Source: Escherichia coli (GTDB lineage: Bacteria; Pseudomonadota; Gammaproteobacteria; Enterobacterales; Enterobacteriaceae). From it: DNA of 64,000 bases. Below, one piece after another: positions 38,970-53,101 of this stretch. The stretch is from the NCBI RefSeq assembly GCF_030013595.1, contig NZ_CP122768.1; one strand, written 5' to 3'. Below the pieces are notes generated by a model that ran no database searches, was not told the DNA's origin, and saw only the letters and a program-made list of their open reading frames with translations. Within the stretch, counting starts at the first letter, position 1. Each line of letters opens with the position of its first letter. Position numbers and translations under genes: made by a program.

Positions 38970-39043
38970 GCGGGCGTAGTTCAATGGTAGAACGAGAGCT
39001 TCCCAAGCTCTATACGAGGGTTCGATTCCCTTCGCCCGCTCCA
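38970..39043 (+). tRNA. glyU: tRNA-Gly, anticodon CCC
   Basis: 74 nt GCGGGCGTAGTTCAATGGTAGAACGAGAGCTTCCCAAGCTCTATACGAGGGTTCGATTCCCTTCGCCCGCTCCA; cloverleaf, T-loop GGTTCGATTCC, encoded CCA. Confidence 0.95.
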
Positions 39044-39044
39044 A
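39026..39044. repeat. attL: 19-bp direct repeat (tRNA-Gly 3' end) at the left island junction
   Basis: TTCCCTTCGCCCGCTCCAA is identical to 53083-53101. Confidence 0.85.
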
Positions 39045-41348: not shown

Positions 41349-41363
41349 CGCACCATACCGCAT

Positions 41364-41507
41364 ACCCTGAGGGTGATTTACTGTTACCCTGAGGGTATTT
41401 TTTTATCTTCCCCGTCAATTTTACCATCACCCTTAGGGTAGATTTCCTCCCGATTACCATCACCCTTAGGGTTAATTTCCTTCCGGTAACCATTAGGCCT
41501 GAGGGTA
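41364..41507. repeat. Five copies of the palindromic motif CCCT(G/T)AGGGT, including a ~33-bp tandem direct repeat; putative operator upstream of alpA
   Basis: Copies at about 41364, 41386, 41428, 41461 and 41494; unit TTACCATCACCCTTAGGGT(A/T)(G/A)ATTTCCT occurs twice. Confidence 0.6.
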
Positions 41508-44348: not shown

Positions 44349-44639
44349 ATGAAAAAGAAAAATTCTGGCTTTACTGCCAGCGGCCCCGCTCGGCCTGAAA
44401 TCAGACACGGCGATATTTACCGCGACACCAGACGCGGGGGACGAGTGGTTATTCGTCACGTTACGCCAGGCAATATCACCTACCGCCGCGAGGCTTACGA
44501 ATATGACTGCGTAATGCCGCGCCGTCAGTTTGAGCGTGATTTTATTCTGGTGGAAAACAAACAACAGGCGGTGGCGAGACGTGCAGCCACGAATATTAAA
44601 AAAATCCGGGCAATGTTGGTTGCGGGAGGTAAGAAGTGA
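44349..44639 (+). CDS. Hypothetical protein (96 aa)
   Basis: AGGAG Shine-Dalgarno; stop overlaps the GTG start of the primase gene. Confidence 0.5.
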   Translation: MKKKNSGFTASGPARPEIRHGDIYRDTRRGGRVVIRHVTPGNITYRREAYEYDCVMPRRQFERDFILVENKQQAVARRAATNIKKIRAMLVAGGKK

Positions 44640-46760: not shown

Positions 46761-47108
46761 ATGAAGGATGCGGAGGAACTGAAAGAAATGGCTTGCGATT
46801 TGCGCGAGGTTGAGCTTTTCAAGGATGAAGGCGGGGAGTTAATCACGTCGTTGGTGCTGGAGGATAAGCCCCGCCCACCCGTTGAACTGGAGCGCATCGA
46901 GTACGCTGCTAACAAGACAGAGAATCACGACGCGCTATGGGGCTGTATCCGTTCACGCACACAGCGCGGCGATAAATGCACTATCCCGTTGTTGCGCGAT
47001 GACATGAAAAAGCTGGGGTATGAGATGAAACACTTCCGGCGCTGGCTGTACAAGCTGGAAAGCGACGGCGTAATCGCTATTGACGGTGATTATGTGCGCC
47101 CACTGTAA
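46761..47108 (+). CDS. Hypothetical protein (115 aa)
   Basis: ORF only; sits between the origin and the GTGAGGA array. Confidence 0.4.
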   Translation: MKDAEELKEMACDLREVELFKDEGGELITSLVLEDKPRPPVELERIEYAANKTENHDALWGCIRSRTQRGDKCTIPLLRDDMKKLGYEMKHFRRWLYKLESDGVIAIDGDYVRPL

Positions 47109-47495
47109 AAAGTGAGGAGCAAAAGTGAGGATGGCGGGTAATTTAACAAAAAATCAACGCCACTCCTCACTTTCTCACCTGTATATAGGTCAAAAAGTGA
47201 GGAGTTAAAAACACATTGCAAAACAACAGATTACAACAATAAAGAAAACGACTGAGGAGCAGAACAAGAATAATAAAAAGTGAGGAACAAAAGTGAGGAA
47301 TGGTGAGTTAATAGAAATGAGGTAATAAAAATAACAGGTAGGTTAAAAAACACACCATGCAAGATATTAACTAAAACTTAACTATTTACCTCACTTTTGC
47401 GTATATATAAGGATTAAAAAGTGAGTACTTAAAAATACATTTAAAATCATATTGTTATTAACTTCATAAATTTTCACTGTGCAGCAGGTGAGGAA
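47107..47495. repeat. AT-rich non-coding array of at least 8 copies of AAAGTGAGGA (both orientations)
   Basis: Copies at about 47107, 47121, 47161 (inverted), 47193, 47276, 47289, 47388 (inverted), 47417 and 47487; no ORF of 60 aa or more. Confidence 0.6.
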
Positions 47496-50813: not shown

Positions 50814-50826
50814 TGACCGTAAAATT

Positions 50827-51110
50827 CGCGAAAAGTGTCAAGTCAGGCCGTCTGCCGGGTTGACACTTTACACTCTGAACGCGAAAAAGTGTCAACCTCG
50901 CTGTAAGCCCCGCCATTACTGGCCTTTCGCCAGATTTACCACGTCAAAAAGCCGAAAAAATCGCGAAAAGTGTCAAGTTGCCATGCTTAGAAATGCTAAG
51001 GTTTGATAAGGTTTTTCGCGAAAAAGTGTCAAGTGTGTCAACCTGCGATGTTAAGATTTGTTAAGGTCTTAAGCCGGAAAGTGTCAACCAGCCCCTAAGA
51101 TTTCCTAAGG
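50827..51110. repeat. Array of at least 6 copies of CGCGAAAAGTGTCAA plus three TAAG(A/G)TTT doublets
   Basis: Copies at about 50827, 50861 (inverted), 50880, 50960, 51016 and 51078; non-coding. Confidence 0.6.
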
Positions 51111-51118
51111 TGTAAATC

Positions 51119-51409
51119 ATGACCATCACCGAAGCCGATATGCTGGAGATGATCCGCAGCATTGCCGGAATCAGACCACCAGCAGGCAAACAGGAGGCCA
51201 CGCAGCCGGACAGCGTTATCGCTGAGAACTATGCGCGTGTGGTGGCTGAGGTGATGCGCCGTGACGGTATTGAGCTTAACGGAGTGGATATGCGCGACAT
51301 ACGCACCAGGGTACTCGAGTTATTGGCCTACCGTCGCCGCGTGCAGATGTACCGGGAGAGCGAGAAAAAGACTTACCAGTGGAAGAAGCCGGAGCGGTTA
51401 CGGCGGTAA
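51119..51409 (+). CDS. Hypothetical protein (96 aa)
   Basis: ORF behind an AAGGTG Shine-Dalgarno. Confidence 0.45.
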   Translation: MTITEADMLEMIRSIAGIRPPAGKQEATQPDSVIAENYARVVAEVMRRDGIELNGVDMRDIRTRVLELLAYRRRVQMYRESEKKTYQWKKPERLRR

Positions 51410-51459
51410 CCAGTTGATAAAAAGGCTCCTCAATTTTGAGGAGGGTAGCTGGTGGCTGG

Positions 51460-51481
51460 CAGAATGTAAATTTACATTCTG
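51460..51481. terminator. Perfect 22-bp palindrome between convergent genes (bidirectional terminator or protein site)
   Basis: CAGAATGTAAATTTACATTCTG, preceded by a second hairpin CTCCTCA-attt-TGAGGAG at 51426-51443. Confidence 0.5.
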
Positions 51482-51511
51482 GTGATTTAATCATCTGATT
51501 TACCCGATGGC

Positions 51512-51802
51512 TTACCTTACCAGGCCATAGCGGATTACCGTGCAATGCGCACCATCGCCACCAATACGCACATCAAAACGTGGCTCACGGACTTTCACAC
51601 GCTCCAGCAACTTATCACGAACCATAGCGTTTAGCGTCCTTCGTGTTGCCTCTATGTGATATCGCTGATATTCGGAACCATAGAGCAGCACTGTAACACC
51701 ACGAACATCAAAAGGTGGATCTCCAGCCTCCACCCGCACCCAATCGCGATACTCAGGTTTGTAGAGTTCAAGGATCTGTTTTTTGTGCCTGGTCATTCTC
51801 AT
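51512..51802 (-). CDS. Hypothetical protein (96 aa)
   Basis: Minus-strand ORF with a protein-like composition; palindromic operator upstream. Confidence 0.45.
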   Translation of the reverse strand: MRMTRHKKQILELYKPEYRDWVRVEAGDPPFDVRGVTVLLYGSEYQRYHIEATRRTLNAMVRDKLLERVKVREPRFDVRIGGDGAHCTVIRYGLVR

Positions 51803-51916
51803 GCGTGCAACTCCTTATTGTGGGACAGTACTGTCATACAATAAGCTATACGGAAAATTATCAAAAGAACAGAAACCAACCATTCAGATTTAACAGGTAT
51901 CAATGGGATTATGCTT

Positions 51917-52219
51917 ATGGTGCATGATGACAAAGCGGAAGAACTGGAAGCGAAAGGCTTATGGCGACGGGCGGCTAATCGCTGGGGTGAGTTACTGAAA
52001 CAGGCGGCAAGTGATGAAGCGCGTCAGTATGTAACGGAACGACGAACGGCATGCATCCGGAAGGCAACCATAACCCGGGAACCGGAAAGAGACCTGATTT
52101 GTGCCATAAGAACCGCCGCCACAAAAACACTAACGGATATGGGGATCGACCTGAAAAAAGAAGATCCACTGCGGGGCATTCAGCACGGACATACAAAGCA
52201 GGATAAACGCAGGAAGTAA
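51917..52219 (+). CDS. PerC-family transcriptional regulator (copy 2)
   Basis: MVHDDKAEELEAKGLWRRAANRWGELL...RRTACIRKA parallels copy 1 at 48114 (clear paralogue); alternative ATG at 51911. Confidence 0.7.
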   Translation: MVHDDKAEELEAKGLWRRAANRWGELLKQAASDEARQYVTERRTACIRKATITREPERDLICAIRTAATKTLTDMGIDLKKEDPLRGIQHGHTKQDKRRK

Positions 52220-53082
52220 ATTTTTTCGTGTAACCAGGCAACCGACTATCTGAAAGATAGTCACACCCTACCGGGATCACGCTAGTAACGCACAACAGAG
52301 TGACCCATAGCCACCCTGTTTAACCGTTCCGGCTGGCTGGGCAGATTTTGCGCGGGTCTTATAGTCCCTCACAACAGAGTAAATAAAATTGACTTGGTTA
52401 CAGAGTAACCAAACCGGAGATTCCCGGTTTGCTCAAAAAATGACAATGAGTTACGCCCCTAACCTAAGTAATCCTTACATTCACTGCATCATCACCATGA
52501 TGGTGACGCAGCCCACCAGCAACCATAACGATTTCCGTTACAGTTGATGTGCTTTTTTGCTGGTAAGGCGTAACCCGTTGATTGTTCCAGAATCCACCAT
52601 CGGTGGAAGTTGAAAAACTCACCCGCCAGATTCTGAATGGTGAAAATCACCGGGGATCTGAATAGGCATTTCCTCTATGGAGGTCGCACCGTTTTCGGGA
52701 GAAGGTGCGATCATGTTCGTCATACCTGTTCCGTTGAAACGGAATACCCCATTCCGGCGTAGCTGGTGGACGCACAGCCACATACGAAAAATTGCATTCA
52801 GGAGGGGGGATCGAAATCCCTACCCCCCATTGCTTATGGGACCGCCCGCCCCGTCAAATTTTTACACCCGCGAAATTAAAAAAATGCGTCGCGCTGGTGG
52901 GCCTGATGCCGATATGGGGATTCCCATAACGGGTTATCCATGATCATCCACCAGCTTGATAACGGATAACAGGGGATGCGAAATCCTCAAGCGAGTGATA
53001 AACGTGTATAGAAATGTGTATAGAATCTATTTTAGAACTCGAGAATGTGCCTTTATTACTGGTCTTGTTGCTTGTTGTATTG

Positions 53083-53101
53083 TTCCCTTCGCCCGCTCCA
53101 A
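53083..53101. repeat. attR: 19-bp direct repeat of the tRNA-Gly 3' end at the right island junction
   Basis: TTCCCTTCGCCCGCTCCAA is identical to 39026-39044. Confidence 0.85.

Follow-up and report, generated by a model that had tools for sequence, protein, structure and literature searches.

A conserved 32-bp inverted repeat as the putative autoregulatory operator of a small, predicted winged-helix protein in a phage-satellite-like island of Escherichia coli

In a 64,000-nucleotide stretch of Escherichia coli DNA (contig NZ_CP122768.1; the window in what follows), a minus-strand gene for an uncharacterised protein of 96 amino acids is separated from the second copy of a PerC-family gene by an intergenic region that contains a 32-bp inverted repeat, CTTATTGTGGGACAGTACTGTCATACAATAAG (Table 1). 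On balance, comparison of homologous loci favours reading this repeat as an autoregulatory operator, a putative binding site for the adjacent winged-helix protein that overlaps the promoter of its gene. The operator would consist of two inverted copies of the pattern CTTATTGTRKGAYAG, that is, two 15-bp half-sites around a 2-bp centre, and a dimer of the 96-aa protein would bind both half-sites and control its own transcription. Since the site lies on or next to the promoter region and the ribosome-binding site, this control would most likely be negative. The proposed site spans the region just upstream of the ribosome-binding site, overlaps it, and holds the only conserved promoter-like elements. 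Together, repeat, ribosome-binding site, gene and terminator make up a portable cassette located where PICI/P4-like phage satellites have their right end. An earlier note on this DNA had proposed an operator for the same small protein, centred on the perfect 12-bp palindrome GACAGTACTGTC; the assignment to the adjacent protein is strengthened by the presence of the repeat at most homologous loci and by the predicted fold, while the functional unit appears to be the 32-bp repeat, with its conserved outer arms, and not the 12-bp core, which varies.

Both the position of the palindrome and the larger symmetric sequence around it that the earlier note had described (TTGTGGGACAGTACTGTCATACAA, 51818-51841, 10/12 symmetric) are borne out by the sequence. 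The palindrome lies 21 nt from the ATG (51802) of the minus-strand 96-aa open reading frame and 75 nt from the first ATG (51911) of the plus-strand PerC frame. By itself it is an unremarkable feature that occurs at chance frequency, as the window contains 19 perfect 12-bp palindromes against 17.7 +/- 5.2 expected from first-order Markov simulations. The symmetry is wider than had been noticed. It extends over 32 bp with the layout CTTATTGT-N16-ACAATAAG and 14/16 symmetric positions, in which outer arms TTATTGTA and TACAATAA enclose inner arms GGACAG and CTGTCA and a centre GTAC; no other 32-mer of the window reaches a symmetry of 14/16, and 0.05 would be expected. In the whole window the half-site pattern matches only the gene-proximal site and its mirror copy, and a search of the 64 kb for further repeat copies or half-sites, which might have formed a regulon, returned none, as would fit a local regulator.

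Table 1 Features of the intergenic region and its neighbours in the window, and repeats upstream of distant homologues of the 96-aa gene.
Feature	Position	Strand	Description or basis
32-bp inverted repeat	51814-51845	.	Putative operator and conserved unit; symmetry, presence upstream of homologous genes
Perfect 12-bp palindrome GACAGTACTGTC	51824-51835	.	Variable core of the repeat; sequence and comparison with relatives
Gene-proximal half-site CTTATTGTGGGACAG	51814-51828	+	Half-site pattern CTTATTGTRKGAYAG
Gene-distal half-site CTTATTGTATGACAG (minus-strand reading)	51831-51845	-	Half-site pattern; homology of relatives stops at 51845
TACAAT, -10-like	51837-51842	+	Inside distal arm, faces PerC copy 2; PWM 5.8-8.3 bits (weak); candidate outward promoter
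TTATTG, -35-like	51815-51820	+	Partner 16 bp upstream of TACAAT
CACAAT, mirror -10-like	51817-51822	-	Faces 96-aa gene; PWM and sequence
Shine-Dalgarno-like AAGGAG	51811-51816	-	Sequence; 8 nt 5' of the ATG at 51802; AAG shared with proximal arm
96-aa gene	51512-51802	-	Uncharacterised winged-helix family, putative cognate regulator; ORF and predicted fold
Terminator-like hairpin CTCCTCAAAATTGAGGAG with T-run	51426-51443	-	3' of 96-aa gene; terminator scan
PerC-family gene, copy 2	51911-52219	+	Divergent neighbour; PF06069, E 4.5e-23
Locus L172 (P0036)			Two tandem TTAATGTACAA-n5/7-TTGTACATTAA repeats, 41 bp apart; second touches AAGGA
Locus L176 (P0034)			Single repeat of the TTAATGTACAA-n5/7-TTGTACATTAA type
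Locus L184 (P0051)			Two copies, 64 bp apart
Locus L177 (P0045)			One copy, TTATTGCA-N14-TACATTAAGGAG; TTGACA-17-CATTAT overlaps distal arm
Locus L180 (P0071, GIY-YIG-like fusion)			TTAATGTA-N16-TACATTAA at -79 to -48, overlapping TTGCAC-18-TATGAT
Locus L175 (P0025)			Pair plus third half-site
Locus L173 (P0023)			Diverged arms TTGTAGC-n10-GCTACA, touching AAGGAGG
Klebsiella phage ZX1 (37% identical)			32-bp CTTATTGA-N16-TTGATAAG after a terminator; arms coincide with TTGACC-18-TAAGAT

Evidence for a function tied to the adjacent gene comes from relatives of the locus, which were collected by protein similarity alone and comprise 13 genomes of 10 other enterobacterial genera (among them Buttiauxella, Mixta, Serratia, Erwinia, Pluralibacter, Lonsdalea, Shimwellia, Enterobacter and Hafnia) together with 68 viral contigs. 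The repeat stands directly 5' of the ribosome-binding site at 70 of the 72 loci that include enough upstream sequence, so that an inverted-repeat site is found beside the protein's own gene and is conserved jointly with it; the TAAGGA that adjoins the repeat is likewise kept in most relatives. Among these loci the repeat occurs in 39 unique variants; the 35-nt flanks upstream of it comprise 55 unique sequences that fall into many unrelated groups, and sequence similarity among loci ends at the distal edge of the repeat. Within E. coli, the module as found in the window occurs at >=90% identity in 48 of 5,426 complete genomes, and a more sensitive search finds 408 genomes. In about 330 of the latter the BLAST alignments are confined, within the gene, to its 5' part, and they stop exactly at query position 334 (51845), the outer edge of the repeat. 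Conservation of this kind excludes a chance origin.

Conservation within the repeat is concentrated away from the 12-bp core. Read in the orientation of the gene, the consensus of the 39 variants is CTTAwTGT-AKGAyAsnnsTrwCCy-ACAwTAAG-GA, with T2, T3, A4, T6, G7, T8, A9, G11, A12, C22, A25, C26, A27 and A30 invariant; the conserved parts are the outer arms, which are nearly invariant, and the inner GGA.AG/CT.TCC. The core reads GATAG..CTATC in most variants and GAGAC..GTCTC in locus L007, and its central 4 bp are free. Even in strain RM9088, which is 99.9% identical, a single SNP breaks the perfect 12-mer (GGCAGTACTGTC), and in strain CFIAFB20180511 (GATAGTACTATC) both mirror positions differ from those of the window. 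Changes at mirrored positions are to some extent coupled. Pair 13-20 is T:A in 25 of the 39 variants, C:G in 4, G:C in 1 and broken in 9, and pair 5-28 is T:A in 25, A:T in 2, A:A in 6 and T:T in 6. Cells in which both sides have changed number 8, against 3.1 +/- 1.3 in shuffles (reached in 1/500, relatedness ignored), and the covariation score is 0.051, against 0.033 in shuffles (reached in 3/500, relatedness again ignored), which suggests a symmetric covariation signal that is real but modest. At the same time, many mirror pairs are systematically asymmetric: position 9 is A in 100% of the 39 variants, while its mirror position is C in 77%.

When orphan repeats lacking the gene were sought, for example in helper phages, the apparent cases proved to be decayed or replaced copies of the gene. 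Eight viral contigs (L025, L027, L028, L037, L041, L043, L062 and L063) retain the repeat and the first codons ATGAGAATG, with the winged-helix gene either truncated or swapped for an unrelated 36-aa open reading frame, and in this lineage the otherwise invariant A9 is mutated. Homologues also occur on 10-23-kb molecules from Klebsiella and Raoultella that were deposited as 'non-mobilizable plasmids' (records H87-H90 and H97) and that may be excised circular satellites.

The protein encoded next to the repeat has no match among the Pfam, PHROGs or NCBIfam models, its family is annotated as 'hypothetical protein' throughout the databases, and a literature search for the RefSeq protein accessions found no paper that mentions them. 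Close relatives are scarce (17 clusters), and an exhaustive profile search gathered 60 representatives at 50% identity, mostly of 95-155 aa, which share the pattern MRMTxRKKxIL...PPFDVxGV..LL...ES/ATRRTLxxMVxDGLLE...RYGLPG. Profile comparisons with known families were negative: a Pfam search over 28 family members gave HTH_20 as its best hit, at E 0.062 in one member, a sequence-profile search of the family against the PDB gave FurB at E 0.49, and no significant profile match places the protein in the MarR, ArsR, PadR or Fur families of Pfam. Structure prediction with AlphaFold2 from an alignment of 28 diverse sequences returned a winged-helix topology at pLDDT 83.9 and pTM 0.73. The best Foldseek hit has an E value of 0.018 and the fold match is one at class level only; the best structural matches are ArsR, MarR, Fur and MecI, dimeric repressors whose palindromic binding sites lie within the promoters of their own genes. 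On this model the 96-aa protein is predicted to have a winged helix-turn-helix fold and to bind DNA, and the segment ES/ATRRTLxxMV, predicted to be the recognition helix, is the most conserved part of the protein. With its own canonical AAGGAG and the terminator-like hairpin downstream, the gene forms a self-contained unit. A second hairpin (GCAGAATGTAAATTTACATTCTGG, 51459-51482, 11/12 symmetric) lies between the convergent genes 51119-51409 and 51512-51802.

Some members of the family are built differently. P0071 (200 aa) is fused to a GIY-YIG/T5orf172-like nuclease domain, and P0019, P0042 and P0047 (591-1506 aa) contain 6-11 tandem matches to the segment formed by the recognition helix and the wing. 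Rpp, the packaging redirector of PICIs, for which a structural study exists (PMC6739421), was considered as an identity for the protein because of the satellite context and was rejected, the best PDB match of the profile being FurB, at E 0.49.

Further evidence comes from distant homologues (32-45% identity), whose loci have no DNA that can be aligned with the window. The arms TTAwTGTA..TACAwTAA are nonetheless kept in 7 of 10 such loci and in Klebsiella phage ZX1, the sole match among 50,697 phage records (Table 1). The remaining three of the ten show no clear repeat: none is found at L182, a half only at L185 and a degenerate form at L179. Arms that stay constant while copy number and distance from the start codon vary have the look of operators for a conserved recognition helix.

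Could the repeat instead be a promoter and nothing more? Under this account, to which we would give a rather low probability, it is a palindromic bidirectional core promoter that is symmetric through dual use, with TTATTG (-35-like) on one strand and yACAAT (-10) on the other in each arm, and either no protein binds to it or one other than the adjacent protein does. The linkage of site and gene would also be expected were the repeat simply the promoter of the gene. Moreover, since homology ends at the edge of the repeat, any conserved promoter must lie inside it, and the only promoter-like elements that fall wholly within the conserved block are of the form TTATTG-16-yACAAT, weak and present on each strand (TTATTG-16-TACAAT and TTATTG-16-CACAAT). 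The bases that form TACAAT are invariant in the 39 variants, the asymmetry at A9 would be needless in a pure dimer site, and in phage ZX1 the arms coincide with a promoter-like TTGACC-18-TAAGAT. Against this, the -35 elements match at 2-3 of 6 positions with low scores, a promoter scan tool reported none in the intergenic region, and a position weight matrix, applied to candidate -10s at repeat positions 3 or 8, picked out no -35 that recurred consistently across the variable flanks. On the gene strand, the distal arm contains the candidate -10 elements TATTGT and TATGAC. The failure to find a clear sigma-70 promoter counts against the operator reading as well. Use of CACAAT as the promoter of the 96-aa gene is doubtful, because the start site predicted for it falls after the conserved AAGGAG. 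A promoter-only role also leaves unexplained the inner GGA.AG/CT.TCC arms, the tandem sites at L172 and L184, and the constancy of the winged-helix gene. Promoter and operator function may coexist.

A role at the level of RNA seems unlikelier still. In this account the 5' leader of the mRNA for the 96-aa protein would fold at the repeat into a hairpin; pairing of the distal arm with ACAAUAAG would hide part of the Shine-Dalgarno sequence and so control translation or stabilise the message. The predicted folding energies are consistent with such a structure (-10.1 kcal/mol for the gene strand and -12.0 kcal/mol for the opposite strand, z ~ -4 against shuffles), as are the overlap of the proximal arm with AAGGAG and the presence of some compensatory double changes. 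The variants argue otherwise: uncompensated changes are common in the middle of the AU-rich stem, where pair 5-28 is broken in 12/39, and on the gene strand most variants have mismatches at pair 9-24, broken in 30/39, and at pair 10-23. In addition, the flanks are unrelated and bring no conserved upstream promoter from which the distal arm could be transcribed. Among the distant homologues (L180, L172, L184 and ZX1) there are repeats placed 29-48 nt away from the start, repeats present in duplicate, and repeats with a promoter element within or behind them; arms that remain constant under such variation in number and distance are difficult to square with the masking of a ribosome-binding site by a hairpin. 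A search of positions 51000-53000 against Rfam 15 gave no relevant match at E<=1. The repeat does not resemble an intrinsic terminator, as the scan did not report it, its stem is AT-rich and it is followed by a T-run on neither strand.

Least probable, and in our judgement very improbable, is a recombination or module-boundary site, or a site bound by a different protein of the satellite, a helper phage or the host, which would mark where an accessory-gene slot begins or ends at the right end of satellites: homology breakpoints do fall exactly at the distal edge in many contexts, with varied cargo beyond it (PerC, an HNH endonuclease with a methyltransferase, host genes), and the repeat survives beside decayed gene copies, but each element has a single copy, direct repeats do not flank it and no recombinase is consistently adjacent, the winged-helix gene is the only constant neighbour, and selection that ended at the border of a promoter-operator would produce the same breakpoints just as well.

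The preferred reading, an operator of the adjacent protein, places the system beside several that are well known. ArsR/SmtB, MarR, Fur, BlaI/MecI and PadR act as dimeric winged-helix autorepressors, each through a palindromic operator within its own promoter, and the 96-aa protein is proposed to be of the same working type, although it belongs to none of these families by sequence, has no ligand- or metal-binding extension, and would use a long site of 32 bp in which the conserved arms are 16 bp apart. The SOS repressor LexA recognises a box of the form CTGT-N8-ACAG. The earlier note had set the palindrome against this box; both contain the tetramers CTGT and ACAG, here in the reversed order ACAG-TA-CTGT, but the comparison turns out to be irrelevant, as CTGT-N8-ACAG is absent from the window and the C and G of the tetramers (CAG/CTG) vary among relatives, most of which have GATAG/CTATC.

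Late promoters activated by P2 Ogr or P4 delta carry a dyad TGT-N12-ACA centred near -55. The repeat likewise presents a TGT...ACA dyad in a satellite, with its centre 81 bp upstream of the ATG of PerC copy 2. It was rejected as a promoter of this kind, the spacing being TGT-N16-ACA and not N12 in all 39 variants, and its association is with the winged-helix gene and neither with late or morphogenetic genes nor with PerC.

The divergent gene itself is a clear member of its family (PF06069, 81.8 bits against a cut-off of 22.6), and RefSeq annotates it in near-identical strains with a start at 51917, against 51911 for the first ATG. The suggestion in the earlier note that the small protein gates expression of PerC does not carry over to relatives. 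Among 50 distinct contexts, only 5 have PerC as the divergent neighbour, and homology stops at the edge of the repeat that faces it; in the other contexts the region beyond the repeat contains an HNH endonuclease and a methyltransferase, host genes such as dinD, or nothing for several hundred base pairs. The comparison thus argues against a dedicated PerC gate, and any gating would be local at most. In this island an effect on PerC copy 2 through the outward TACAAT is possible, the one argument for it being that a bound protein would cover this element, and the protein might then co-repress PerC copy 2 locally.

A broader version of this idea, which we regard as improbable, is that the repeat is a self-contained, portable, bidirectional promoter-operator, each arm of which serves as a -35 in one direction and as a -10 in the other, and that together with the winged-helix repressor it forms a conserved 'gate' at the right-end cargo slot of enterobacterial phage satellites. 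Were this so, the cassette would control whatever accessory gene had landed there, a PerC homologue here and nucleases or methyltransferases elsewhere, and its response might be tied to infection by a helper phage.

PerC/Pch proteins are activators of the LEE virulence locus in pathogenic E. coli. In STEC and other E. coli with this island, of which strains RM9088 and STEC308 are examples, the site separates the regulator from a second PerC-family gene, and a repressor acting there could matter for the control of virulence genes. Apart from this possible link, the system would be an ordinary autoregulated cassette, uncharacterised and of a very well known type. The analysis does provide a likely role for an unannotated family of small proteins that about 400 of the 5,426 complete E. 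coli genomes encode and that is also found in many other Enterobacterales, and predicts a probable, now precisely defined DNA target for it.

The island is 14.06 kb long and is bounded by a perfect 19-bp direct repeat (TTCCCTTCGCCCGCTCCAA, at 39026-39044 and 53083-53101), the copy at 39026-39044 being the 3' end of tRNA-Gly(CCC); we assign the two copies as attL and attR of a satellite-like island. Its genes are, in order, an integrase, an AntA-like gene, DUF4222, a D5/P4-type primase-helicase, ProQ/FinO, PerC copy 1, DUF2213, a small-terminase-like helix-turn-helix gene, phrog_1561, the minus-strand 96-aa gene and PerC copy 2, a make-up by which we class it as a PICI/P4-like phage satellite. 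In other E. coli, the triplet of phrog_1561 gene, 96-aa gene and PerC again occupies the right end of satellites, whose packaging modules are quite different.

A second known protein from an island of the same kind was compared with the 96-aa product. RgdR (ECs1581), encoded by the cryptic prophage Sp7/CP-933C of E. coli O157, is a small activator of the LEE for which DNA binding has been reported (PMC3378721), and the two have in common a basic protein of 96-99 aa, the type of island, and an adjoining PerC homologue, PchE in the case of Sp7 (PMC3378721). This identity was rejected, because the gene of the window with which ECs1581 aligns is the DUF4222 gene (44349-44639), not 51512-51802, and island Sp7 has neither the winged-helix gene nor the repeat. 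The DUF4222 gene, which lies just upstream of the primase gene, is the RgdR/ECs1581 homologue in this island and has RHGD where the Sakai protein has an RGD motif.

Several other repeated sequences were observed in the island. Four close copies of the palindromic ACCCTnAGGGT occupy an intergenic stretch at 41363-41486, near the regulatory genes on the left-hand side, and look like another operator array. Three copies of AAAAAGTGAGGAGCAAAA, spaced by ~84 bp, lie at 47107-47299 upstream of the ProQ/FinO gene; iterons are one possibility for them, repeated ribosome-binding sites belonging to tiny open reading frames another. Between the small-terminase-like gene and the open reading frame that begins at 51119, four copies of CGCGAAAA(A)GTGTCAA(GT) at 50817-51032 could constitute a packaging or terminase-binding array.
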